Below, piece after piece: positions 3,659-43,882 of a DNA stretch of 64,000 bases. The notes beneath the pieces are model-generated. The model was given only the letters and a program-made list of their open reading frames with translations, did not search any database and was not told the DNA's origin. A program made the position numbers and the translations under genes. Source of the DNA: an uncultured Bacilli bacterium (GTDB lineage Bacteria > Bacillota_I > Bacilli_A > RF39 > UBA660); contig CAKPSO010000001.1 in assembly GCA_934183185.1 (NCBI GenBank), positions 21,846-85,845 on the forward strand, given 5' to 3'. How positions within the stretch are numbered: position 1 is the stretch's first letter; every line of letters starts with the position of its first letter.

Positions 3659-5140
3659 TTATTCTTCATTATTATCTAAAGGTCTCATTAATGGAAACAT
3701 AACTACATCACGAATACTATCACTACCAGTTAATAGTTGAACTATTCTGTCTATTCCCATACCCCAACCTGAAATAGGTGGCATACCATATTCCATAGCT
3801 GAAATATAATCATAATCCATATCCATAGCATCTAAATCACCGGCAGCTTTTAAATTAGCCTGTTCAAGTAATCTTCTTTCTTGTTCCTGTGGATCAACTA
3901 ATTCACTATATCCATTAACTATCTCTGCTCCATTAATAACTAATTGGAAACGGTCACTAATCTCTGGTCTATCATCATTACTACGAGCAAGTGGTGATAA
4001 ACTAGTTGGATGTTCAGTAAGATAAACTGGCCCTAACATATGAGGACGTGCTACCTTCTTATATAAAACATCTACTAAATTACCAAATCCTAAGTTTTCT
4101 AAAGGAACATCACTTTCGACTTCAATATGATTTTCTTTAATCTTAGCTAGTAACTTTTCCTTAGTATTATCAACATTAATATCAATATTAGCATATTTAA
4201 CTAATAAATCTCTAAAACTTACTCTACCCCAATCACCACTCATATCGACAGTTTTATCACCAACTTGAATAGTAAGAGTTCCAAATATATTCATAATAAT
4301 TGTTTGAAGCATATTTTGAATTAATTTCATATTATCTTCATAATTAAAGTAAGCTTGATATCCCTCTATCATAGTAAAATCCTGTAAGTGAGAAGCATCC
4401 ATTCCTTCATTACGGAAACATCTAGCAATCTCATATACCTTTGGAATACCTCCTACTACAGCTCTTTTTAAGTAGGTTTCTGGAGCTATTCTTAAATAAA
4501 CATCTAAATCAAGTGCATTATGATGTGCCTTAAATGGTCTAGCTGCTGCACCACTAGCTTTATTATTTAAAATAGGAGTCTCAATTTCCATATAACCAAG
4601 ATTATCAAGATAATGTCTTAATTCACGTATAAATTTAACACGTATCTGAAAACGTTTTCTAGTATCTTCATTCATTATTAAATCTACATAACGTTGACGA
4701 TAACAAGCCTCTAAATCTGTTAATCCATGAAATTTTTCTGGTAAAGGTTTTAAGGCTTTACCAAGGAAAGTAAAATTATCAGCACGTAATGTTTTTTCAC
4801 CAGTATGGGTAGTAAAGATTTCTCCCTCAGCACCTAAAAAATCTCCTAAATCAACATTACTCTTAAAGAATGCATAAGCTTCCTCTCCAACTAAATCAAT
4901 TTTAATAGATATCTGTAAATCCCCATTAATATCACGTAATTTTAAGAAACTCATTTTACCCATTTTTCTCATAAAAACAATACGACCAGCTACACGTACA
5001 CCAGTAGTACCATCATCTAACTTGCTAGCATCTTCTAAAGAATGCGTAATTTCATATCGCTCGGGATATGGATTACAGTACTCTCTAATTGCATTAATTT
5101 TATCTCTTCTAACTAATTCTTGTTCACTAAATTCTCTCAT
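3659..5140 (-). CDS. lysS: Lysine--tRNA ligase (class II)
   Basis: 493-aa ORF with GAGGTG RBS. N-terminal OB anticodon-binding region and class II core motifs (e.g. GGIPKVYEIARCFRNEG, the class II motif 2-like segment). Conserved synteny dusB-(RDD)-lysS. Confidence 0.9.
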   Translation of the reverse strand: MREFSEQELVRRDKINAIREYCNPYPERYEITHSLEDASKLDDGTTGVRVAGRIVFMRKMGKMSFLKLRDINGDLQISIKIDLVGEEAYAFFKSNVDLGDFLGAEGEIFTTHTGEKTLRADNFTFLGKALKPLPEKFHGLTDLEACYRQRYVDLIMNEDTRKRFQIRVKFIRELRHYLDNLGYMEIETPILNNKASGAAARPFKAHHNALDLDVYLRIAPETYLKRAVVGGIPKVYEIARCFRNEGMDASHLQDFTMIEGYQAYFNYEDNMKLIQNMLQTIIMNIFGTLTIQVGDKTVDMSGDWGRVSFRDLLVKYANIDINVDNTKEKLLAKIKENHIEVESDVPLENLGFGNLVDVLYKKVARPHMLGPVYLTEHPTSLSPLARSNDDRPEISDRFQLVINGAEIVNGYSELVDPQEQERRLLEQANLKAAGDLDAMDMDYDYISAMEYGMPPISGWGMGIDRIVQLLTGSDSIRDVVMFPLMRPLDNNEE

Positions 5141-12336: not shown

Positions 12337-12636
12337 TTATTCATTTCCCTCTGGTAATCTTAAAATTATTTCGCCATCTTTTGAATACATGTATTTTTCT
12401 CTTGCATAACGAGCTACATAATCAGGATCTTCTAATCTATTAGTTTCTTCCTTTAATTCAGCCTCTTTTTCACGTAAAGCTAACATTTCTTTTTTTAAGG
12501 TATTACGCTCTTCGTACTTATTAGATATTTCAATCCAATAATTACCAACTGCAGTAAATATTGCAATTATAACTAAAAAACAAACTGGAACAAATAAACA
12601 CAAACGTGCACGAGATTTTTTCTGTTTCTTTGCCAT
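12337..12636 (-). CDS. divIC: Septum formation initiator family protein (FtsB/DivIC-like)
   Basis: 99-aa protein with a basic N-terminus, a single TM helix and then a coiled-coil (KKEMLALREKEAELKEETNRLED). Synteny yabP-yabQ-divIC. Confidence 0.6.
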   Translation of the reverse strand: MAKKQKKSRARLCLFVPVCFLVIIAIFTAVGNYWIEISNKYEERNTLKKEMLALREKEAELKEETNRLEDPDYVARYAREKYMYSKDGEIILRLPEGNE

Positions 12637-12733
12637 AATTATCTACACCCTTCTAAGCTCATTATAATGTTCAAATGACAAAAATACAAGAAATTATATT
12701 GATAACTTTTGTCGTTTACAATAAAAGTGTAAA

Positions 12734-13009
12734 TTATTTATATCTAATTTTAAAACTGAATATATTTCCAACTAAATATCCTATCAAAACTAAAAGATAA
12801 AAATATGGATGTAAAACAGCATTATTAATAGTTTTCATACTGATAAAATATAATAAGCAAACACCAACTACTACCACAAAATTCCAAATAATTTGATAAA
12901 CTAATTTACCATAAAACAAATGATGATAACAGAGATTAATCACATATGAAACAATAAATCCATAAACAAATGAGAAAACCAAGCTTTGAATTTGTACACT
13001 TAATTCCAT
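12734..13009 (-). CDS. yabQ: Spore cortex biosynthesis protein YabQ-like small membrane protein
   Basis: 91-aa polytopic membrane ORF immediately downstream of yabP and overlapping it (ATGGAATTAA junction), as in the Bacillus yabP-yabQ pair. Confidence 0.5.
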   Translation of the reverse strand: MELSVQIQSLVFSFVYGFIVSYVINLCYHHLFYGKLVYQIIWNFVVVVGVCLLYFISMKTINNAVLHPYFYLLVLIGYLVGNIFSFKIRYK

Positions 13010-13299
13010 TATTTAAATAGCCTACTAATAATACTAGATTCTTTTTCTTTTTTAGTAGTGTCATCTACATACGCAAAGGATTTAACTAAACCTTTAATTG
13101 ATACATTTCCCTGAAGAGTATCAAGTTTTAATAGTTCCAAATCTTCTCCCTTAATTACTAAATATCCCATTACAGTTTCCATTAAAAATTCTTCATTATC
13201 AAAGCTCTCAATCTTTTTAACTCCAGTTACTAAAATATTCTTTCTTTCAACTATATTAATACTATGATTATAATTATTAATTGTGTTATCCTTGTCCAT
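13009..13299 (-). CDS. yabP: Sporulation protein YabP
   Basis: 96-aa protein. SFDNEEFLMETVMGYLVIKGEDLELLKLDTLQGNVSIKG aligns with the YabP family core (ESFDNEEFLLQTVQG...). Confidence 0.75.
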   Translation of the reverse strand: MDKDNTINNYNHSINIVERKNILVTGVKKIESFDNEEFLMETVMGYLVIKGEDLELLKLDTLQGNVSIKGLVKSFAYVDDTTKKEKESSIISRLFK

Positions 13300-13383
13300 A
13301 TATATATCCTCCTAATAAATAATATGGTACAAATTTCAAACTAGAACAAAAAAAGAACCATAAAGGTTCTGGTACTACTTAAA

Positions 13384-13665
13384 TTATTCTTCAGTTTCAG
13401 TTACAGGATCTTCTGCTTCTTCATAAGCTTTAAGAACTGCTTCTTCAAACATAGAACGAACTTCTGAATTAATTGGATGAGCTATATCTCTATATCCACC
13501 ATTAGGAGTTTTTTTACTAGGCATTGCTATAAATAACCCTTTTTCTCCTTCAATGATACGAATATCATGAATAGCGAAACTATCATCTAATAATACAGAA
13601 GCAATTCCTTTCATTCTTGAACTTTCTTTGTCGATCTTACGAACATTTACAGATGTAATTTTCAT
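13384..13665 (-). CDS. spoVG: Septation protein SpoVG
   Basis: 93 aa. MKITSVNVRKI...GIASVLLDDSFAIHDIRIIEGEKGLFIAMPSKKTPNGGYRDIAHPINSEVR is a near-canonical SpoVG sequence. Confidence 0.9.
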   Translation of the reverse strand: MKITSVNVRKIDKESSRMKGIASVLLDDSFAIHDIRIIEGEKGLFIAMPSKKTPNGGYRDIAHPINSEVRSMFEEAVLKAYEEAEDPVTETEE

Positions 13666-13726
13666 ATGTTACATATCCTCCTTCTAAAGTATTCCAACTT
13701 TATACTTTAATAATATAATATATTAA

Positions 13727-13766
13727 CAAAAAAAGCAACAAAAACTGGTAATATATGACAGTTTTT
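13727..13766 (-). terminator. Rho-independent terminator after veg (9-bp stem CAAAAACUG/CAGUUUUUG, followed by a U-run on the minus strand)
   Basis: Inverted repeat caaaaactg (13738-13746) / cagtttttg (13758-13766) with an A-run at 13727-13733 on the plus strand. Confidence 0.55.
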
Positions 13767-13788
13767 GACTAATAAATACCTGCAAATT

Positions 13789-14004
13789 TTAATTAAGTAC
13801 TATAAGTTTTTTCATAAGTACATCACTATAACTAAAAGATTTAAGAAAATTACTTTCTGCAATCAACACAATAAATATATAATCATATGTTTCAACAATC
13901 TTACCAGAAAATTCTTCTATTTGATTTCTATTACCATTAAAACGAAAATTTAAAGTTTTACCCTTATAATTAGCGACTCTATCTTTAATTTTATCTAAAT
14001 TCAT
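13789..14004 (-). CDS. veg: Veg protein (biofilm/sporulation-associated small protein)
   Basis: MNLDKIKDRVANYKGKTLNFRFNGNRNQIEEFSGKIVETYDYIFIV...SFSYSDVL matches the Veg family (…[21 protein letters not shown]…VSYSYADIL). Start trimmed to the internal ATG. The longer ORF would overlap yabG. Confidence 0.7.
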   Translation of the reverse strand: MNLDKIKDRVANYKGKTLNFRFNGNRNQIEEFSGKIVETYDYIFIVLIAESNFLKSFSYSDVLMKKLIVLN

Positions 14005-14789
14005 CTTGGATACCCCACAAACATACAACCCTTAGTTGCAACACCACCTATTCCATCAGCACCATACTTAGTTTTAGATAATAATGGTATTAAATCAATA
14101 GTTTTATTACGATCATATAAGGCTACTCCACTAGCTATAATAGCTGGATCTAGAGCATGAATATTAATACGTTTAGGACTAGAAGCAAAAGTAGCACCAG
14201 CCTTTATTAACTCTTCATAATTACTTTGACAAGCTCCAGCTACAATTATTAACTTATCTTGATCACGTTCATATTTTCTAGCCTCTAGTACTGCTTCAAC
14301 AAAGTTTTCAGTATTCTTATAACTTGATATATCCTTTATAGAACCTTTCCTTTTATAATATGCATCATGACCAGTAATAACCAATATATCAGGCTTAAGT
14401 TTTTTCAAATAATTAACTATTTCGGACTTAACATCAACTTCATCTAAGCAAGCACCATAAGCCATAATATTAAGTTTCTTATACAAATTCATGCAACGAC
14501 GTAAATAATCTTCATCACCATCAATATGTAAGATTTTTCCTGGTAAATAAAAGTATTCACTACGATCAAGTTGAATATCCTTATCTACCTTAGCTAATAT
14601 AAGTCTATCGTCTTCTACTTCGTTATCACTTTCATTTACCTTATTTAAATCATCAAGATCACTATCAGCAAGCAATCTAATATTAATACCCTTTAAATAA
14701 GCAATATTACCAACTATATCAGTAATCTTAAAGATTAAATCATTATCATGTGAACTTCTAGTAACTAAATCGCCAATATGAAAAAGCAT
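14001..14789 (-). CDS. yabG: Sporulation-specific protease YabG (peptidase U57)
   Basis: MLFHIGDLVTRSS...ITGHDAYYKRKG matches the YabG N-terminus (MQFQIGDMVARKS) and the family core. Start placed at M5 by homology. Confidence 0.8.
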   Translation of the reverse strand: MLFHIGDLVTRSSHDNDLIFKITDIVGNIAYLKGINIRLLADSDLDDLNKVNESDNEVEDDRLILAKVDKDIQLDRSEYFYLPGKILHIDGDEDYLRRCMNLYKKLNIMAYGACLDEVDVKSEIVNYLKKLKPDILVITGHDAYYKRKGSIKDISSYKNTENFVEAVLEARKYERDQDKLIIVAGACQSNYEELIKAGATFASSPKRINIHALDPAIIASGVALYDRNKTIDLIPLLSKTKYGADGIGGVATKGCMFVGYPR

Positions 14790-14841
14790 ATCATCACCCA
14801 TATAATGATATGCCTTTATTTTCTTATTATTACCAAATAAA

Positions 14842-19724: not shown

Positions 19725-21266
19725 TTATTTTTTACCTAATTCTTCTAGTTTTTTATCTTTATCAATTCTCATAAATAAAGCTTCTGGATTAACAACTTCA
19801 TAAGAATTATCACTTAAGTAAGTTAATTCACTTCTAGAATTATTAATCTGAGTTTTTATCTTTTCACTAGTATCAGGTAAATATGGACTTAGGAAAATAC
19901 CACATACACGAATAGATTCAAGAAGATTATATAAAACTGTTTCCAATCTATCTTTTTTAGTATCATCTTTTGCAAGAGCCCAAGGCATAGTCTCATCAAT
20001 GTATTTATTAGTTCTTCTAAGAACATCAAAAATCTCATCAAGAGCTGCACCTATTTCTAGATTATTCATTTTCTTTTCTACTTTTTCTTCCAAATTATTT
20101 ACCATTAAAATAAGTTCTTTATCAAAATCTTCTGTAACATTTTTATTAGAAACTGTACCATTAAAATATTTATTAGCCATTGAAATAGTACGATTAACTA
20201 AATTTCCTAAAATATTAGCCAAATCACTATTAATTCTCTCAATTAAAAGTTCATAAGTCAAAGTACCATCATTAGCGTATGGTATTTCATGAAGAACATA
20301 ATATCTTATAGCATCTACTCCAAATTCTTTTACTAAATCATCAGCATAGATAACATTGCCTTTAGATTTACTCATTTTTCCTTCACCAACAAGTAACCAA
20401 GGGTGACCAAATACTTGCTTTGGTAGTGGTAAATCAAGGCTCATTAAAAAGCATGGCCAGTAAATAGTATGAAAACGAATAATATCTTTACCTATTAAAT
20501 GCAAATCAGCTGGCCATAATTTATTAAACTCATCACTACTACCATCTGGATCATACCCAATATTAGTAATATAATTAGTTAAGGCATCAAGCCATACATA
20601 AACAACATGTTTAGGATCAAAGTCAACTGGTATGCCCCAATTAAATGAAGTACGAGAAACACACAAATCCTGAAGACCAGGTTTTATAAAATTATTTATC
20701 ATTTCATTTTTCCTAGACTCTGGTTTTATAAAATCTGGATGTGATTCAATATATTCAACCAATTTATCTTGATATTTAGAAAGTTTAAAGAAATAAGCCT
20801 CTTCACTCTTAGGTTGTACCTCACGTCCACAATCAGGACATTTACCATCAACTAATTGACTTTCCGTAAAAAATGATTCACAAGGAGTACAATATAATCC
20901 TTCATATTTGCCTAAATATATATCTCCTTTATCGTACATTTTTTTAAATATTTTTTGAACAATTTTTTCATGATGTTCATCAGTAGTCCTAACAAATCTA
21001 TCATAACTTGTATTCATAATGTCCCAAATATTTTTAATTTCTGAAGCAACACTATCAACAAATTCTTTAGGCGTAACACCTTTTTCTTCTGCCTTTAATT
21101 GAATCTTTTCACCATGTTCATCAGTACCTGTTTGAAAGTAAACATCAAATCCTTTCAATCTTTTATAACGTGCAATACTATCTGCTAAAACAATCTCATA
21201 AGTATTACCAATATGAGGTTTCCCTGATGTATAAGCAATAGCTGTTGAAATATAATATTTTTCCAT
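19725..21266 (-). CDS. metG: Methionine--tRNA ligase (short form without the C-terminal tRNA-binding domain)
   Basis: Class I HIGN motif (GKPHIGNTYE), a zinc knuckle (CTPCESF...CPDCG) and KMSKS (GKMSKSKGN). Start at the MEKYYIST ATG at 21266 with an AGGAGAG RBS. Confidence 0.9.
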   Translation of the reverse strand: MEKYYISTAIAYTSGKPHIGNTYEIVLADSIARYKRLKGFDVYFQTGTDEHGEKIQLKAEEKGVTPKEFVDSVASEIKNIWDIMNTSYDRFVRTTDEHHEKIVQKIFKKMYDKGDIYLGKYEGLYCTPCESFFTESQLVDGKCPDCGREVQPKSEEAYFFKLSKYQDKLVEYIESHPDFIKPESRKNEMINNFIKPGLQDLCVSRTSFNWGIPVDFDPKHVVYVWLDALTNYITNIGYDPDGSSDEFNKLWPADLHLIGKDIIRFHTIYWPCFLMSLDLPLPKQVFGHPWLLVGEGKMSKSKGNVIYADDLVKEFGVDAIRYYVLHEIPYANDGTLTYELLIERINSDLANILGNLVNRTISMANKYFNGTVSNKNVTEDFDKELILMVNNLEEKVEKKMNNLEIGAALDEIFDVLRRTNKYIDETMPWALAKDDTKKDRLETVLYNLLESIRVCGIFLSPYLPDTSEKIKTQINNSRSELTYLSDNSYEVVNPEALFMRIDKDKKLEELGKK

Positions 21267-21276
21267 AATATCTCTC

Positions 21277-21756
21277 CTATCTACCTGTAGAACCAATACC
21301 GCTAGTTCTAACATTATCTATATTTTCTTCATTATCAACCGTTAAGAACTTTGTAAAAACACCCTGACAAATCTTATCTCCCTTTTTTACAACATAATCT
21401 TCAGAACCATGATTTTGTAACTTTAACCATGCATGTCCCTCATTATCTAGATTATTATAATAATCAGATTCAAATACACCAACCTGATTACACATTCGAA
21501 CATTATACTTAAATCCCTGACTACTTCTAACTAAAAGAAACATAACCTCATCAGTATTCATACATATCTTAATACCAGTTGGAATTTTCTTTATTTCACC
21601 AGGTTTCAAAGTAAAATCAAATAAAGATTCAAAGTCATAACCTGCACTATGTTTAGTATTTCTCTTAGGGATATTATATGATTCATATAACTCTTTATCA
21701 TCACCTATATCCTTTTTAAATTGTTCAAAACTAATTTTCTCAAAATATCTTGCCAT
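21277..21756 (-). CDS. dut: dUTP diphosphatase-like protein (dUTPase/dCTP deaminase superfamily, YncF-like)
   Basis: LLVRSSQGFKYNVRMCNQVGVFESDYY...KKGDKICQGVF...RTSGIGSTG aligns with the YncF/phage-type dUTPase motifs (PRSS..., GVID.DY, KGDRICQ, RG.GGFGSTG). ATG at 21756 directly after a GGAGG RBS and the T-box U-run. Confidence 0.6.
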   Translation of the reverse strand: MARYFEKISFEQFKKDIGDDKELYESYNIPKRNTKHSAGYDFESLFDFTLKPGEIKKIPTGIKICMNTDEVMFLLVRSSQGFKYNVRMCNQVGVFESDYYNNLDNEGHAWLKLQNHGSEDYVVKKGDKICQGVFTKFLTVDNEENIDNVRTSGIGSTGR

Positions 21757-21765
21757 ATTACCTCC

Positions 21766-21990
21766 AAAAAAAAGCAACTATTCTAACCACATAAGGACGA
21801 ATAATCGCGGTACCACCTTAATTTATAGTATAACACTATACACTCAATCTCTTAACGCGAGTAACGAATAAATTATAAACAAATTTATTAGCTCCAGAAC
21901 CATTTATTATTGTTTCTCTATATCTACTTTCACCTAATTAGACTCTCTTAAATAGATTCCCAATAACTCTTTCCTTCAGCGCATTTATGC
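21766..21990 (-). ncRNA. T-box riboswitch leader (tRNA-sensing antitermination element) preceding dut-metG. Probable Met (AUG) specifier
   Basis: The minus-strand transcript contains AAUUAAGGUGGUACCGCG at 21807-21824, a 17/18 match to the T-box consensus AAUUAGGGUGGUACCGCG. This is followed by the terminator helix GCGAUUAUUC/GAAUAGUUGC plus U8 at 21766-21773, and then a GGAGG RBS. Upstream stem-I-like region with AGAGA motifs and an AAAUGG candidate specifier. The promoter TTGAAG-17-TATAAT lies at 22018-21995 on the minus strand. Confidence 0.75.
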
Positions 21991-21994
21991 CTGA

Positions 21995-22023
21995 ATTATA
22001 ACATGAATAATTCTATTCTTCAA
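21995..22023 (-). promoter_or_regulatory. Sigma-A-type promoter for the T-box leader (-35 TTGAAG, 17-bp spacer, TG-extended -10 TATAAT)
   Basis: Read on the minus strand: TTGAAGAATAGAATTATTCATGTTATAAT, with consensus spacing. Confidence 0.5.
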
Positions 22024-22540
22024 CCATTTTTAAAAAAATTGAACTTAAAAACCTACCAAACAAATAATCAGTATCTGAAATACCATCATTACTAAATAAA
22101 ATTACTAAACCAATAGCATCACTATCAATAATAATAGGACTAATAAAATATGAACAATTTTCATTTACATTAGGAATAAATTGAACATCTACTTTACTCT
22201 CCTGATTAATATCCATTCGTCCTTCCAACTTAGTAATTAAAAAATTACTAATATTTTGATTTAAATACCTATCTTTCAAATCTGAACTACATGCAATAAC
22301 CATATCATCATTAGTAATGAGAACTTTAGCATTTATAAATTTATTAGTTATTACCACCAATTTATTAGCAATAGAAATCATATCATCCATTAAAGAAAAC
22401 TTTTTTAATACAATAGATGACTCATTAGTAAATATTTCTAATGAATCACCATCTCTAATTTTAAGATTTTTTCTTATCTCTTTAGGAATAACTATTCTAC
22501 CTAAATCATCAATTCTTCTAACAATACCAGTTGATTTCAT
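22013..22540 (-). CDS. spoVT: Stage V sporulation protein T (AbrB-N/SpoVT swapped-hairpin DNA-binding domain plus GAF-like domain)
   Basis: MKSTGIVRRIDDLGRIVIPKEIRKNLKIRDGDSLEIF is near-identical to the SpoVT/AbrB N-terminal domain. The ~175-aa length with a C-terminal GAF-like region fits SpoVT rather than AbrB. Confidence 0.75.
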   Translation of the reverse strand: MKSTGIVRRIDDLGRIVIPKEIRKNLKIRDGDSLEIFTNESSIVLKKFSLMDDMISIANKLVVITNKFINAKVLITNDDMVIACSSDLKDRYLNQNISNFLITKLEGRMDINQESKVDVQFIPNVNENCSYFISPIIIDSDAIGLVILFSNDGISDTDYLFGRFLSSIFLKMVEE

Positions 22541-22606
22541 ATATTCCTCACTTTCTACCATTAGTTTTTCTATAGTAGAAAGAATTATACTAAGAAATAT
22601 ATTTTT

Positions 22607-23236
22607 TTATTTTTCTTCAGTCTTAGAACAAATTTCCTGATATCTTAAATATCCTTCTTTAGCCTTATTAATTAAGTTATTATCTCTAAGTATTAGTTCC
22701 ATATGAATCTTATTTTCTAACTTGCCATACAAACGATTAAACAAATAATCTTGAATTCTTGAAAGCAAAATATCATGTTTATCAAAGTTTTCAAGAGAAT
22801 CTATCTGCTTCATAAAAACATCATAAGCTTTCTTTTGTACATCAGAAATAGAATATTTTTTTAGATCACTTTCTAATACTGTAGTTGTTTTCAAAACAGT
22901 ATCATAATAATTATTTATGTGAGTTTGATCAAACTCCAGTTCTTCTATAACTTTTTCTAATTTAACTTTTTTATTATCCAATAATCGTTCAAACTCACAA
23001 TAACTATCCATTTTTATTTGATTAATAGTATCAGTAATGAATTTTTTACTATCAAATAAATTAGCATCTTCATATATAGATATAATATTTTTTATAGCAT
23101 TATCAAATTCTAAATTAAAAATATTAGTAATGGTTTCTAGCAATGATGTCATGTTTTTTTCTATATCATAACCAAGTGTAGTAATCAAAATTTGTTTATT
23201 TTTTTGTCGAAACATCTCAATGATATCACTATTCAT
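22607..23236 (-). CDS. Hypothetical cytoplasmic alpha-helical protein (209 aa)
   Basis: ORF between mfd and spoVT. No TM helices. No recognisable motifs. Confidence 0.45.
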   Translation of the reverse strand: MNSDIIEMFRQKNKQILITTLGYDIEKNMTSLLETITNIFNLEFDNAIKNIISIYEDANLFDSKKFITDTINQIKMDSYCEFERLLDNKKVKLEKVIEELEFDQTHINNYYDTVLKTTTVLESDLKKYSISDVQKKAYDVFMKQIDSLENFDKHDILLSRIQDYLFNRLYGKLENKIHMELILRDNNLINKAKEGYLRYQEICSKTEEK

Positions 23237-37520: not shown

Positions 37521-39458
37521 CTAAATATCAATATTCTGCACATAATCAGCATTTTCTTCTATAAACTTACGCCTAGGCTCAACTTCATCACCCATTAATT
37601 TTTCAAAAATAGAATCAGCCGCTACACAATCTTCAACTGTAATTTTTCTCAATACTCTCTTTTCAATATCCATAGTTGTTTCATTTAATTCTTCAGCATC
37701 CATTTCTCCTAAACCTTTCATACGAGCTATTTCTGCCTTAGAACGAACATTTTCGGGTAACGTTACTAAATAATCAGCCAACTCTTCATCATTTAACACA
37801 TATTTTCTAGTTTTACCATGTTGAATTCTATAAAGTGGTGGTTGAGCAGCATAAACATGCCCAGCCTCAACAATAGGTCTAAAGAAGCGATAAAATAATG
37901 TTAGTAATAATACACGAATATGTGAACCATCAACATCGGCATCAGTCATAATAATAATCTTATCATAACGTAATTTAGATAAATCAAAGTATTCCCCGAT
38001 ACCAGTACCAAAAGCTGTAATAATAGTTTTGATTTCCTCATTGCCAAGTGCTTTATCCACTCTAGCCTTCTCAACATTCAAAATTTTACCTCTAAGTGGT
38101 AAAATAGCCTGAGTCATAGAATCTCTACCCTTTTTAGCAGATCCACCTGCACTATCCCCTTCGACTATGAATATTTCTGAAACACTAGGATCCTTACTCT
38201 TACAATCAGATAACTTTCCAAAGAAATTAGTTACAGCCAAATCACTTTTTCTAGTAGCTTCTCTTGCACGTTTAGCAGCCATTCTAGCATTTCTAGCTAA
38301 AATAGCTTTATTAACTATAATTTTAGCCTCATCAGGATTTTCTAATAAAAATCTTTCAAATCCTTCTGAAAAAACACTATCAGCAAGTCCACGTACTTCT
38401 GAATTACCTAATCTTCCCTTAGTTTGACCCTCAAACTGAGGATTTGGATGCTTACATGAAATAATCATAGTAAGTCCTTCTTTAACATCATCCTCTTTTA
38501 AATTTTCATCTTTGTCTTTCAACATATTATTCTTACGAGCATAATTATTAATTACCCTAGATAAAGCCCTTTTAACACCATCTTCATGAGTACCACCATC
38601 ATGAGTATTAATATTATTAACAAAAGAATAAATATTAGTATTATAAGAAGTATTATACTGCATAGCTACTTCAAAAAATACATTATCTTTTTCTCCACTT
38701 AAATGAATAATATCATCATGTATAGGAGTCTTCTCCTGATTTATAAATCTAACATACTCGCTTATACCACCTTCATACAAGAATGTTTCACCAGTAGTAT
38801 CTTCAAGATCTCTATCATCTCTTATATTAATTGATAAACCTCTATTTAAAAATGCCAATTCTCTTACTCTAACTTTCAAAGTTTCATAATCATAAATATC
38901 AGTATCAAATATATCAGGATCAGGTTTAAATGTAACTGTAGTTCCTGTTCTAGATTCTTCACAATCACCTATTACATGAAGTGGTTCTACTGTATGTCCA
39001 CCATTTTCAAATCTAATTTTATATATTTTACTATTTTTATATACTGTAACTTCAACCCATTTACTAAGAGCATTAACTACACTAGCTCCAACACCATGTA
39101 ATCCTCCAGAAACTTTATAGCCTCCACCACCAAATTTACCTCCAGCATGTAAAACTGTATAAACTGTTTCAACAGTAGATATCCCTGTTTTTGGATGTAC
39201 ATCAACTGGTATTCCTCTACCATCATCTTTTACTGTAATAGAATTATCTTTGTTTATAACTACCTCTATATTATTACAGTACCCAGCTAAGGCTTCATCT
39301 ATTGCATTATCAACTATTTCCCATACTAAGTGATGCAATCCCTTAACATCTGTAGTTCCTATATACATTCCTGGCCTTTTTCTTACAGCCTCTAAACCTT
39401 CCAATACTTGAATATCAGAAGCATCATAATGATTTGTTACTTTTTCTTCTAAACTCAT
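37521..39458 (-). CDS. gyrB: DNA gyrase subunit B
   Basis: GHKL ATPase motifs ([31 protein letters not shown]), a Toprim domain ([10 protein letters not shown]), and the C-terminal tail. Confidence 0.95.
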
Positions 39459-39460
39459 AC

Positions 39461-40576
39461 TTATTCCACCCTCTCTGTTACATTACCATGATCAACTATA
39501 AATATTTTGGCTTGATTAACTATTTTCTTTTGAATATTTTTCAAATCAGTAGTAGTAATAATTGTCTGAATACCATTAGGTATATATTCAATTAGTTTAT
39601 TTCTCTTTTTAATATCTAATTCACTAAATATATCATCTAGTAATAAAATTGGACTTGTACCAATTTCTTGATTAAAAAATGAAACTTCTGCTAATTTAAA
39701 GGCAATAATAGCTACTCTTTGTTGACCTTGTGAAGCATAATACTTCATGTTATTATCACCTATAAAAAAAGAAAAATCATCACGATGTGGTCCATACAAA
39801 GTAATACCTTGCATAATTTCCTTTTTTATATTTGACTTCAACTTTTTTGAAAATTGCTCAATAATTTTTTCTTCTTCAAAACTACCTAAATCAATATTGT
39901 TTTCATAAATAATATTAAGATCACTAAGACCCATTATATCTTTATAAATCAATGAAATCTTAGAATTAATATAATCTAAATACTTTTTTCTAAAAATATA
40001 TATTTTAGTACCTCTATCAATCAATTTTTCATCGATTACTTCTAAATATCTTAAATCAGAAAAACCATTAATATTCATCTGTTTCAAGTATTCATTTCTA
40101 GTTTTCAATAGTTTATTATATTCATTTAAACAAGTTACATATTTTGGATATAATTGACTAATTTGAACATTTAATAGATTTCTTCTAATTTGGGGAGAAC
40201 CTTTAATAATATCTAAATCAGTAGGTGCAAACATAATAACATTCATACTAGATATATATGAAGCTATTTTTTTTACTTCTTTTTGATTTATAAACACTTG
40301 TTTATTTTCATTATCAAATTTTATCATCAATTCTTTTAAATTATCCTTAGTCCTAAGTGTCCCTTGTACCTTGCATGTAGAATATCCACTTTGAATAATA
40401 CTACTTTCAAACCCTAAGCGATACGATTTAGTAAGTGCAAGCATATATATACTTTCTAAAATATTTGTTTTTCCTTGAGCATTATCACCAATAAAAATAT
40501 TAATCTTATCACATAGTTTTATTTTTTGTTTTTTATAATTTCTAAAATGATCTAACTCAATTTTTGATAAATACAT
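39461..40576 (-). CDS. recF: DNA replication and repair protein RecF
   Basis: Walker [15 protein letters not shown], the ABC signature and the D-loop. Synteny dnaN-x-recF-gyrB. Confidence 0.9.
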
Positions 40577-40669
40577 AAAAAGCCCCCAAAAAACTCATAT
40601 AATCACCTTTTAATAAAATTAATACACCTATACTTGCACATATATTATACCACAGTAACAGCCTAAAAT

Positions 40670-40712
40670 CACACAAAAAAAGAAAAAGCAGCTATTTTTT
40701 TTCTGCTTTTCT
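40670..40712 (-). terminator. Rho-independent terminator of the ComK-like gene (AGAAAAGCAG-loop-CUGCUUUUUCU followed by a U7 run)
   Basis: Inverted repeat agaaaaagcag/ctgcttttct at 40681-40712 overlapping the last codons of the ORF, with an A-run at 40674-40680 on the plus strand. Confidence 0.6.
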
Positions 40713-41144
40713 ACTATTTATTAAATATTTTAATCGTGTAGCTCTCAAAATCTGATTATCAAGTGAATTTTTTGAAGTATCTATAGTTATATGCTTACCA
40801 TTAATAAGTGTAACATTAGCCTTATTATTCTTTTTTTCTATGGAACTTATAGAATTCAAAGAAAACCAACCACAACACTTAGTAATAGGAGAGGCCGTTG
40901 GAAAGAATATTAATTCATTACTCTCCTCTACTATAATTGGAACTTTATAATTACATCCCAATAGTTTTCTACTACCATCTACTCTACCTTGATAACTACT
41001 ACCAAAGTAACTACAACTATTTTCCATTACTTCATAGGCATGTTCCCCGATAATAAAATCACTATCATTCTCAATAACTCTAGTTTTACCATTTTTTAAG
41101 CCTATAATAGCTAAAGTATTATTACCTAATTCATATTTACTCAT
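40692..41144 (-). CDS. comK: ComK-family competence transcription factor-like protein
   Basis: NSCSYFGSSYQGRVDGSRKLLGCNYKVPIIVEESNELIFFPTASPITKCCGWFSL aligns with B. subtilis ComK (RSCRFFGSSYAGRKAGTYEVTKISHKPPIMVDPSNQIFLFPTLSSTRPQCGWISH). ATG at 41144 with an AGGGGGA RBS. The ORF-track start is a GTG. Confidence 0.6.
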   Translation of the reverse strand: MSKYELGNNTLAIIGLKNGKTRVIENDSDFIIGEHAYEVMENSCSYFGSSYQGRVDGSRKLLGCNYKVPIIVEESNELIFFPTASPITKCCGWFSLNSISSIEKKNNKANVTLINGKHITIDTSKNSLDNQILRATRLKYLINSRKAEKK

Positions 41145-41243
41145 TATTTTTCCCCCTAACACTTCTAATTCGAATTAGTGCCATATATTATAATCACACT
41201 AGATGTCGAATAATAAGTATTTATGGGTAATATCTAACTTTTA

Positions 41244-42365
41244 TTAATAAGTACGAATTGGTAACACTAATTGAGTTAAGCCTTCATCTTTTTTAGATTT
41301 TAAAATAATAGGTTTAACTTCTCCAACAAAAGAAATTTCTACTTCATCATCATCAAAAGCTTTTAAAGCCTCCATCATGTATTTAGCTACAAAAGAAATT
41401 TTCAAATTTTCTTCGTTATTTTTTTCAATAGTCATCTTTTCTTCTACCTTACCAATCTCAGCACTACTACTCTTAACATATAATTTATTATCATCTATCT
41501 CAAATGTTACTATATTCTTTTCTTTATCACTAGTTAAAATACTAGCACGATCAATTACATTATATAAATCACTTATATTAGCCTTAATAGACAACATAAA
41601 CTCTTCAGGAAGTAAATTTGAAGTATTAGGATAAGTTCCACTAATCAATCTAGATTGGAATAGTAAATTCTGATATTTAATTAAAATTTTATTATTAAAT
41701 ACATGTAATTCTAAATTATCCTCACTATCATCCATTATCTTAATAAATTCTAATAAATTTTTACTTGGAATAACTATATTATAATTATCATTTATAGTTT
41801 CATTTAAACGAATAACTTTTCTAGCCAATCTATAAGAGTCTGTAGAATTACATTCTAATATATCTCCTAATATTTTAAAATTAATACCTGTAAGTATTGG
41901 TCTAGATTCATCATTACTAGATGCAAATGATGTTTGACTAATTATAGACTTAAATACTCTAGCTGCAACAGTAACTGGACTTTTACTTTCTTCTAAATTA
42001 ATACTAGGATACTCATTTTTATTAATACCATTTAAATTAAATTCACTATTTTCTGTGTAAATAATTATTTTCAAATCATCTACAACTTCTATATTAATAT
42101 ATTCATCAGGTAATTTACGAACTATATCTAATATATATTTTCCTTGTATAATAATAGATCCTTCTTGATCTATATTCATATCTTCATCTTTTTCTATAAA
42201 TACTTTAATAGTAATATCATTATCACTAGCAGTAAGTGTAAGTCCATTATTATCTAAATCAAATTTAATTCCTGCAAGAACAGGGACTAAATTTTTTGTA
42301 CTAATTGCTTTTGATACTTTATTTAAACCATCTAATAAAACCTCTTTTTTAATTTTTAATTTCAT
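41244..42365 (-). CDS. dnaN: DNA polymerase III beta sliding clamp
   Basis: 373 aa with the three-domain beta-clamp pattern. Lies immediately downstream of dnaA. Confidence 0.95.
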   Translation of the reverse strand: MKLKIKKEVLLDGLNKVSKAISTKNLVPVLAGIKFDLDNNGLTLTASDNDITIKVFIEKDEDMNIDQEGSIIIQGKYILDIVRKLPDEYINIEVVDDLKIIIYTENSEFNLNGINKNEYPSINLEESKSPVTVAARVFKSIISQTSFASSNDESRPILTGINFKILGDILECNSTDSYRLARKVIRLNETINDNYNIVIPSKNLLEFIKIMDDSEDNLELHVFNNKILIKYQNLLFQSRLISGTYPNTSNLLPEEFMLSIKANISDLYNVIDRASILTSDKEKNIVTFEIDDNKLYVKSSSAEIGKVEEKMTIEKNNEENLKISFVAKYMMEALKAFDDDEVEISFVGEVKPIILKSKKDEGLTQLVLPIRTY

Positions 42366-42505: not shown

Positions 42506-43882
42506 TCACACTATTTCTTTCTTTAATTTTTCAATTATATTGGCTAATTCTTTATTAGACAACATCTCCCTCTCTATCTTTTCGACAGAATGCATTACTG
42601 TTGAGTGATCTTTACCTCCAAATTCAATTCCTATTTTAGGAAATGATTCATTAGTAAGTTTTCTACATAAATACATAGCTACTTGCCTAGGAAATGCTAA
42701 ATTAGCACTTCTTTTCTTAGATTTCATATCATCTACTGATATTTGAAAGTGTTCAGCAACTATTCTTTGAATTCTATTAATATTATTTTTTTCACTATAT
42801 CCTTTATTTACATAATCTTTCAATACTTCTATAGCTAAATCAAGTGTTATATCAGTACCACCCATTATTGTGGAATAAGCTAACAGTCTAGTAATTGAAC
42901 CTTCCAGATGTCGCACATCACTTCCTACGTTAGAGGCAATATACTCAATAACGTCATCAGGTATATTTTTATTAATAGAATCCCCTATTATCTTCTTTTT
43001 AAGAATAGCTACGCGTAAATCAAAATCAGGTGGATAAATATCAGCGGTCAAACCCCAACAGAATCTAGTTCTAAGTCTATCTTCTAATAGTTTTAAATCA
43101 TCTGGTGATCTATCTGAAGATATTATTATTTGCTTATTATCATTATATAAAGTAGTAAATGTATGGAAAAATTCATTTTGTGTTTGAGTAGCTCCCTGAA
43201 AAAACTGTATATCATCAATAATTAAAACATCTATATTTCTATATTTATCTTTAAAGTAATTAACATAGTCAAAGTTTTTACCATGCTCATCCTTTTTATT
43301 AATACCAAGAAAATCATTTATAAATTGATCACTAGAAACATATAAAACTTTCTTATTACTATGCTGTTCAATATAATTACCAATTGCATGCATCAAATGT
43401 GTCTTCCCTAGTCCACTATTTCCATATATAAATAGTGGATTATAAATATTTCCAGGATTTTCTGCTACATCCAAAGCAGCTGCTTGTGCAAAACGATTAC
43501 TATTACCAACTATAAAATTTTCAAATGTATAATTTGGATTAAGGTTAGATTTATGTTTTCTTTCAATATTATTTTCTGCTTGATTATCAAATAAAGAAAT
43601 TCTCTCTTCTCTAACTACTTTTTCTTCTGTTTCAATTTCTTCTTTTAAGAAAAACTGAATGTCAACATTGTCACCTATAATATCAGATAATGTACTAGTA
43701 ATTAAATCATAATATCTAGTAGCTAAATGTCTTTTAAACATTCCCATGGGAACTATAATTTTAGCTACGCCATCTTTATATTCATACAATTCTGTATCTT
43801 TAAACCAGGTATTAAAGGATAATGGTGTCATTTCATTTTTTATACTGTTTAAAAAATTAGACCAAATGATTTTCACATTCAT
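42506..43882 (-). CDS. dnaA: Chromosomal replication initiator protein DnaA
   Basis: AAA+ Walker A (GNSGLGKTHLMHAIG), Sensor/Box VII, and the C-terminal DnaA signature (HSTVMHS). True start MNVKIIWSNFL... at 43882 with a GGGGAGGGATAAT RBS. The 96-nt extension in the ORF track is an artefact running into DnaA boxes. Confidence 0.95.
   Translation of the reverse strand: MNVKIIWSNFLNSIKNEMTPLSFNTWFKDTELYEYKDGVAKIIVPMGMFKRHLATRYYDLITSTLSDIIGDNVDIQFFLKEEIETEEKVVREERISLFDNQAENNIERKHKSNLNPNYTFENFIVGNSNRFAQAAALDVAENPGNIYNPLFIYGNSGLGKTHLMHAIGNYIEQHSNKKVLYVSSDQFINDFLGINKKDEHGKNFDYVNYFKDKYRNIDVLIIDDIQFFQGATQTQNEFFHTFTTLYNDNKQIIISSDRSPDDLKLLEDRLRTRFCWGLTADIYPPDFDLRVAILKKKIIGDSINKNIPDDVIEYIASNVGSDVRHLEGSITRLLAYSTIMGGTDITLDLAIEVLKDYVNKGYSEKNNINRIQRIVAEHFQISVDDMKSKKRSANLAFPRQVAMYLCRKLTNESFPKIGIEFGGKDHSTVMHSVEKIEREMLSNKELANIIEKLKKEIV

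Follow-up and report, generated by a model that had tools for sequence, protein, structure and literature searches.

What is a gene of the ComK family doing between dnaN and recF, close to the replication origin, and what controls it there? This question is raised by a 64,000-nucleotide stretch of DNA (contig CAKPSO010000001.1, positions 21,846 to 85,845, here called the window) from an uncultured bacterium of RF39, a widespread, reduced-genome order of human and animal gut bacteria which has so far escaped cultivation. The gene, comK, occupies positions 40692..41144 on the minus strand, with its ATG at 41144 and its stop at 40692. The best reading of our data, which we hold with slightly more belief than doubt, is that comK is a Spo0A-controlled, monocistronic gene for a DNA-binding transcription factor that consists of the ComK core only. 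The gene is already labelled ComK in some public records of metagenome-assembled genomes (MAGs). What is new is its context, namely a position between dnaN and recF that is fixed in 79 of 80 species, a protein without tail and a promoter with consensus, phased Spo0A-type boxes. Each of these elements has a precedent, in the short ComK2 proteins, in the binding of Spo0A at PcomK and in the origin-proximal competence regulators.

The original prediction had spoken of a ComK-family gene inserted into this cluster, and had suggested a synteny comparison in relatives. One genome per GTDB species was scanned; 394 genomes contained a relative, and the best 80 of the 394 were taken as loci (designated L with a number) and searched by tblastn with the six proteins of the window from dnaA to gyrA. 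The order dnaA-dnaN-comK-recF-gyrB-gyrA was found in 79 of the 80 species loci. It is kept down to a DnaA identity of 44% (44-50% in the distant loci) and a RecF identity of 37% (37-40%). All 80 loci come from uncultured gut 'Bacilli/Tenericutes' MAGs, and one of them, Ca. Faecenecus, belongs to order RF39, family CAG-611 (Gilroy et al.). The window's own species was not found among the GTDB-representative collection; identical ComK with identical neighbours is present on human-gut metagenome contigs (90-150 kb) and in MAG GCA_977044665.1. The protein family as a whole comprises at least 839 clusters, nearly all of about 150 amino acids and from metagenomes only. In each locus a single ComK-family gene was seen, the sole member detected for these genomes by the genome scan. 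The ratio of nonsynonymous to synonymous substitution rates (dN/dS) of comK among the relatives is 0.02-0.16 (97 pairs), and the gene is under strong purifying selection. By this comparison comK had evidently settled in the dnaN-recF slot before the sampled RF39 species diverged. The word 'inserted', which implies a local event, does not describe this situation: the arrangement is ancestral, and since it is fixed in 79 of 80 species-level genomes and the gene is under purifying selection, comK is an old and selected member of the origin block. It was also observed that ComK diverges much faster than its neighbours while its dN/dS stays low: the window's protein (40695-41144) shares 57-63% identity with the nearest species of the collection (L007, L008), for which DnaA stands at about 90% and DnaN at 84-86%.

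A conserved position does not by itself mean that the position is used. It could be that comK entered the cluster a single time in an ancestor, maybe in place of yaaA, and was simply carried along in a rarely rearranged dnaA-gyrA block without any regulatory meaning of its origin-proximal site; we regard this possibility as evenly poised. All six genes of the block are collinear in every locus that carries it, and the stability of this block is a sufficient explanation of the conserved position. Extra genes are tolerated at its junctions. In three species (L040, at 4411-4899, L053 and L070) a dCMP/cytidine deaminase gene (Pfam PF00383) lies between dnaN and comK, where the spacer measures about 640 bp, and in L058 an open reading frame (ORF) of no assigned identity stands between comK and recF. 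One species has ComK elsewhere: in L079 (575-1024; PF06338, E=3.5e-44) the gene has 575 bp of sequence upstream and is followed by unrelated genes with no recF, which may reflect a rearrangement, a second copy or a mis-assembly. Passive residence does not conflict with comK being functional. There is, however, the precedent of dosage-driven competence from oriC-proximal regulators (PMC5034851), and reduced genomes usually shed dispensable genes, yet comK has been kept in place in 79 of 80 species. As a separate observation, the PF00383 deaminase at the dnaN-comK junction is of the enzyme family of ComEB from the B. subtilis comE operon, which may be a coincidence.

The protein itself is a clear member of the ComK family. 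The Pfam profile search that had been suggested gave a match to ComK PF06338 with E=6.6e-39 and 133.5 bits (cut-off 22.3) over profile positions 2-150 of 152, and the same 150-amino-acid product is present in public gene calls. Thus the prediction of a ComK-like protein of 150 amino acids was correct, and the blocks FGSSY, IFFPT and CGW on which it was based are all present. No NCBIfam model matched the protein, and a sequence search of the PDB gave no related solved structure; the closest solved folds to a predicted model of RF39 ComK are LytTR domains. The Bacillus reference was the B. subtilis-group ComK P0121 (192 amino acids), retrieved with a query sequence 97% identical to it. BLASTP aligned it with the whole of the window protein at 32% identity (E=8e-28). 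When the RF39 proteins were aligned jointly with five Bacillaceae ComK proteins (four from Bacillus, one from Fredinandcohnia), 26 columns were invariant, including S43, C44, G48, S49, S50, G53, R54, K67, P69, F81, C91, W93, Q131 and R134. The blocks FGSSxxGR, KxPI, FFPT/FPT, CxW and NQxxR are common to RF39 and B. subtilis ComK.

The same alignment shows what is missing. The RF39 proteins begin about 8 residues later and end about 35 residues earlier than Bacillus ComK, and no FMLYPK-like sequence was found in the window's protein on alignment with the Bacillaceae proteins. The C-terminal tail of B. subtilis ComK carries the MecA/ClpCP degron FMLYPKEERT... (PMC8138137). Without this tail the B. 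subtilis protein loses comGA activation and keeps DNA binding (PMC3128618). Window ComK thus lacks the tail with both the MecA degron and the activation region of the B. subtilis type. Of the original label, 'competence master regulator', the family assignment stands, and the activator role is not established because the tail that it needs in B. subtilis is missing.

A short ComK without a competence switch is known from ComK2. In B. cereus, ComK2 is shorter by 22 residues at its C-terminus and reduces the expression of comG (PMC3128618), and S. aureus ComK2 is reported to repress competence (PMC12491500). RF39 ComK could likewise be a short form like ComK2 that represses, or that regulates other genes, for example those of recombination and repair or of stationary phase, and it may be functionally tied to recF and dnaN. 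We give this possibility a modest chance. It would fit with the loss of the whole tail, with the invariable linkage of comK to recF and with the absence of late com genes and K-boxes from the reachable sequence. However, a single ComK-family gene was detected per locus, and an anti-activator without an activator seems unlikely. The promoters of comK and recF are separate, with a terminator between them. Besides, where all members of a lineage are tail-less, the lack of a tail does not amount to inactivity.

The strongest clue to the control of the gene lies in its promoter. A candidate -10 element, TATAAT, was read at 41187..41192 (minus strand), and relatives have TATAAT or TATAGT, often after TGn, at the equivalent spot. 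The ribosome-binding site GGGGGA (41151..41156, minus strand) stands 6 nt before the ATG, and GGGGG(A/T) is found there in nearly all related loci. When the 110 nt before the start codon were lined up in all loci, a heptamer TTCGACA emerged, which in the window lies at 41204..41210 (minus strand), 11 nt upstream of the -10. It is the reverse complement of the Spo0A 0A box TGTCGAA, to which it corresponds in 7 of 7 positions; with its flanks across loci it reads TTTTTCGACAAA. The dnaN-comK spacers contain 58 copies in 11.7 kb (4.96 per kb), all in one orientation with none on the opposite strand of these spacers. Other segments sampled over more than 1 kb have at most 0.21 per kb, which makes an enrichment of about 24-fold or more, and the few copies inside dnaA and gyrB are coding sequence. 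The exact heptamer is present in 48 of 79 comK upstream regions, and in 69 of 79 if a one-mismatch variant is allowed. In the 6.3 kb of intergenic DNA of the window, TGNCGAA/TTCGNCA occurs a single time, at the comK promoter; a copy of TTCGACA at 23205-23211 falls inside a coding region and was taken as chance.

The geometry of the boxes is as regular as their sequence. There are one to three copies per promoter (one in the window's species), arranged as direct repeats in helical register, and multiple boxes stand at distances of precisely 10 or 20 bp. The distance between the proximal box and the -10 has a bimodal distribution, with 11 and 21 nt, and the two classes belong to different sub-clades. 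The heptamer is not a normal sigma-A -35 element because it lies 11 or 21-22 nt from the -10 and never 16-18 nt. A generic promoter and terminator scan with fixed criteria listed neither the comK promoter nor the comK terminator, the former because there is no -35 at 16-18 nt. TTCGACA was also ruled out as a DnaA box, with no copies in the dnaA-upstream or dnaA-dnaN spacers. True DnaA boxes (TTATCCACA) occur separately, in six upstream regions only; the species with the consensus box TTATNCACA upstream of comK are L022, L023, L030, L035, L055 and L072, and in L072 the boxes form an inverted pair flanking a TTCGACA-like box. The comK upstream region of the window's species has no DnaA box.

The 0A box core TGTCGAA with its A/T flanks is kept from Bacillus to Clostridioides, and the Spo0A proteins of B. 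subtilis and C. difficile have the same recognition (PMC3485338). Spo0A dimers use boxes 3 bp apart (PMC2731898), which results in 10-bp phasing, and this is the tandem helical-phase arrangement found among relatives with two or three boxes. At PcomK of B. subtilis, Spo0A~P binds directly to five boxes, of which three activate and two repress (PMC3297582). In RF39 the motif is an observation, as is its conservation; the identity of the binding protein and the sign of its action are inferred. If TTCGACA is a Spo0A box, transcription of comK would be set by Spo0A~P.

There is a small chance that the heptamer serves another protein, either RF39 ComK itself, with positive autoregulation on direct repeats in the manner of LytTR proteins, or a different regulator. 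LytTR domains, the closest solved folds to the predicted model, bind direct repeats about two helical turns apart, and this resembles the 20-bp box spacing. In the examined sequence comK was the sole place where the motif turned up, as is expected of a dedicated autoregulatory site, and spo0A itself was not directly seen. Activation of their own promoter is classical for ComK proteins (PMC3297582). On the other hand the heptamer is the exact 0A-box core including the A/T-rich flanks, for which coincidence has a prior of about 1 in 8000; the 10-bp tandem spacing fits Spo0A dimers, and the lineage is predicted to sporulate. Moreover, B. subtilis ComK recognises AAAA-N5-TTTT, which is unlike TTCGACA.

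Sporulation genes are present near the origin. RF39 is predicted to be spore-forming from its gene content (PMC10868615), and spoVT, yabG, yabP and spoVG are present in the window. A sporulation-type set at 12337-14801 and 22013-22561 includes the yabG protease, veg, spoVG, yabP, a likely yabQ, divIC and spoVT. No spoIIE was found between divIC and tilS, its location in B. subtilis, which agrees with the published prediction that RF39 lacks it.

Between the -10 and the ribosome-binding site there is a perfect palindrome, CTAATTCGAATTAG, at 41165..41178, which occurs once in the window. Its existence had been recognized before, with coordinates (41176-41189) that are off by 11 nt, and as an account of the cis-elements the earlier description was right about a promoter-proximal palindrome and missed the strongest element, TTCGACA. 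About 20 of 62 loci have perfect stems of at least 6 bp at 27-38 nt upstream of the ATG, with differing sequences (CTAATT, CTAGTT, GCAATT, CTACAT, TGAAAACC and others). The combined shuffle p of this recurrence is about 3e-4 for loci that are not independent of each other. The palindromes are confined to the nearer sub-clade, with none in the more distant clade. As to its function, an operator or a 5'-terminal stem-loop may be considered; the evidence is modest, and the feature does not extend to the whole lineage. A conserved structured RNA in the 5' untranslated region (UTR) is not claimed, folding of the whole UTR giving a mean z of -0.3, and Rfam had nothing at the gathering threshold near comK, only chance-level matches (E up to 5) in 40450-41350.

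The neighbours of comK, all on the minus strand, are dnaN upstream (41244..42365; DNA_pol3_beta Pfam domains on an identical public gene call, and synteny) and recF downstream (39461..40576; SMC_N/AAA Pfam matches on an identical public gene call, and synteny). The gyrB gene (37521-39458) starts 2 nt past recF and is followed by gyrA. On the other side lies dnaA (42506..43882), with oriC just beyond it by the gene call and the GC-skew switch. The skew of the window changes sign at about 44000, which puts comK some 3 kb from oriC. Inspection of the ORFs found no yaaA-like or remB-like frame in the dnaN-recF-gyrB stretch and no room for one, so the ORF map bears out the placement of comK between dnaN and recF without these two genes.

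It should be noted here that comK appears to form a transcription unit of its own. An intrinsic-terminator-like hairpin (40672..40711, minus strand), seen in the RNA fold, has a 9-bp stem and an 11-nt loop that holds the TAG stop, and is followed by a U-run. This agrees with the original prediction of a separate terminator. Among the related loci, 40 of 76 have a terminator-like hairpin and T-run after comK, and 46 of 79 have one after dnaN. No terminator was detected between dnaN and comK in the window's species, so read-through from dnaN is possible there. Downstream, recF has a promoter and leader (40577..40652, minus strand) that are conserved across the RF39 loci, with an extended -10 TGGTATAAT (40644-40652), a block GTATAGG(A/T)GTAT (40622-40633) and a Shine-Dalgarno sequence with a 13-codon upstream ORF (40557-40598). 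This upstream ORF starts exactly 22 nt before the recF ATG, which it overlaps out of frame. The conserved promoter shows that recF is transcribed separately from comK, and together with the terminator it closes comK off downstream.

The recF leader (40557-40652, and also in L007-L086) has features of its own. Its extended -10 is followed by an almost invariant GTATAGGAGTA(C/T) block, which in the distant clade lies in a hairpin followed by a T-run, like an attenuator. There was no Rfam match for the leader and no covariation, and RNAalifold gave only a 4-bp stem with no compensatory changes. A structured RNA was set aside, and we regard the leader as conserved sequence without an explanation. 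Many near-clade loci also have a conserved TTTTAGGC(T) block within the recF promoter, in the spacer region that precedes its -10; this block may be the site of another regulator.

Two further features of the window can be mentioned. A gene for a ClpC-type AAA+ chaperone (Clp_N and two AAA modules, 768 amino acids) lies at 1-1829 on the minus strand, where it runs off the window start, and is found also in L087:16552-18858. In B. subtilis, ComK is degraded with ClpC as the protease partner; window ComK is without the degron. A T-box leader (Rfam RF00230, 100 bits; 21790-21988, minus strand) precedes a dUTPase-like ORF of 166 amino acids (21277-21777), which overlaps the start of the methionyl-tRNA synthetase gene (19725-21314).

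Our data are consistent with the following mechanism for comK as a Spo0A-controlled, core-only regulator. Its transcription would be set by Spo0A~P via the consensus boxes, which is the link demonstrated by biochemistry at B. subtilis PcomK in a hard-wired form, and the box that overlaps the -35 position would work in the manner known from sigma-A promoters that depend on Spo0A. The protein would bind DNA through its beta-rich, LytTR-like core and could control a regulon of the K-state or competence type, as other ComK proteins do. Because the C-terminal tail is missing, RF39 ComK would be outside MecA/ClpCP-ComS control. Its mode of activation may differ from that of B. subtilis ComK, or it may be a repressor. 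At about 3 kb from oriC the gene would have the highest and most replication-sensitive copy number, and this could add a dosage input; the position may equally be a passive result of residence in a very stable gene block. By analogy with the pneumococcal switch the gene-dosage idea is plausible: here too the regulator lies within a few kilobases of oriC (about 3 kb) at a position conserved in 79 of 80 species.

Several points weigh against this explanation. The late competence genes (comG, comE, comF, dprA, ssbB) were absent from the 64-kb window and from its 10-kb flanks, and a competence regulon under RF39 ComK is unproven. Similarly, spo0A was not seen in the reachable sequence of these genomes, where its presence is a published order-level prediction (PMC10868615). 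The distance of 11 nt between box and -10 is more typical of repression than of activation. The tail-less ComK paralogues of B. cereus and S. aureus lower or repress the expression of competence genes. The B. subtilis K-box (at most 2 mismatches) is absent from 40400-41400, and among 79 upstream regions of relatives it was present in just 2. The known type of autoregulation thus finds no support, and RF39 ComK may regulate itself at another motif. Finally, a conserved position alone is no proof of selection for origin proximity. The papers searched gave no link between RF39 and ComK or competence genes.

A bolder version of this explanation would make core-only ComK a fixed part of the origin block that combines the Spo0A~P signal with the copy number of the origin; entry into stationary phase, or replication stress, would then directly trip a K-state or a DNA-uptake programme. 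We consider it improbable. If it were true, the programme might serve nucleotide scavenging, or recombinational repair with the adjacent recF, and RF39 would have a ComK-based, independently evolved counterpart of the pneumococcal oriC-dosage switch.

The strict conservation of a ComK-family regulator suggests that RF39 may have a regulated competence-like state, which would matter for horizontal gene transfer within the gut, for the scavenging of DNA as a nutrient by auxotrophs and for how tractable these bacteria may become to genetics. The promoter architecture offers a clean comparative case in which the link from Spo0A to ComK would be old and could be hard-wired. The fixed origin-proximal position could provide a second, independent system for asking whether the place of a gene on the chromosome lets the state of replication enter a competence decision. 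The tail-less form, in turn, bears on which parts of ComK its function requires.

Comparison with known systems places RF39 comK between several of them. With B. subtilis ComK it shares the family over the whole core (32% identity), and the Spo0A-type boxes of its promoter recall the binding of Spo0A~P to B. subtilis PcomK. The B. subtilis gene lies far from oriC, outside the dnaA cluster. Its product has 192 amino acids against 150 in RF39, where the tail, the degron and the known activation region are missing, and the RF39 promoter differs in having no K-boxes and in boxes that are consensus-perfect and phased. The ComK2 proteins of B. cereus and S. aureus are likewise C-terminally shortened members of the family; however, they are second copies beside a full-length ComK1 and dampen competence genes, whereas the RF39 short form was detected as a single copy and occurs throughout the lineage.

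In the arrangement of its boxes, the promoter resembles Spo0A-dependent spoIIG and Spo0A-repressed abrB and phage phi29 A2c, which have consensus 0A boxes in 10-bp tandem at the -35 position and no normal -35. At spoIIG the -35-like and -10 elements are separated by 22 bp. The RF39 boxes, as putative binding sites, fall into two spacing classes, 11 and 21 bp, by sub-clade. In chromosomal position the nearest likeness is to pneumococcal comCDE, since in both cases a regulator of a competence family lies within a few kilobases of oriC at a conserved position. In the pneumococcus, comCDE and comAB are origin-proximal early competence genes with a gene-dosage trigger (Slager et al. 2014, as reviewed in PMC5034851). 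That system is a two-component system with a peptide pheromone instead of ComK, and its dosage dependence and positive feedback have been demonstrated, whereas for RF39 they are a hypothesis. As for the origin block, RF39 has the same order and orientation of dnaA, dnaN, recF, gyrB and gyrA beside oriC as the canonical Firmicute cluster dnaA-dnaN-yaaA-recF-remB-gyrB-gyrA. It differs from that cluster in the absence of remB, in the presence of comK in the slot of yaaA and in a recF gene that has its own conserved promoter and leader.
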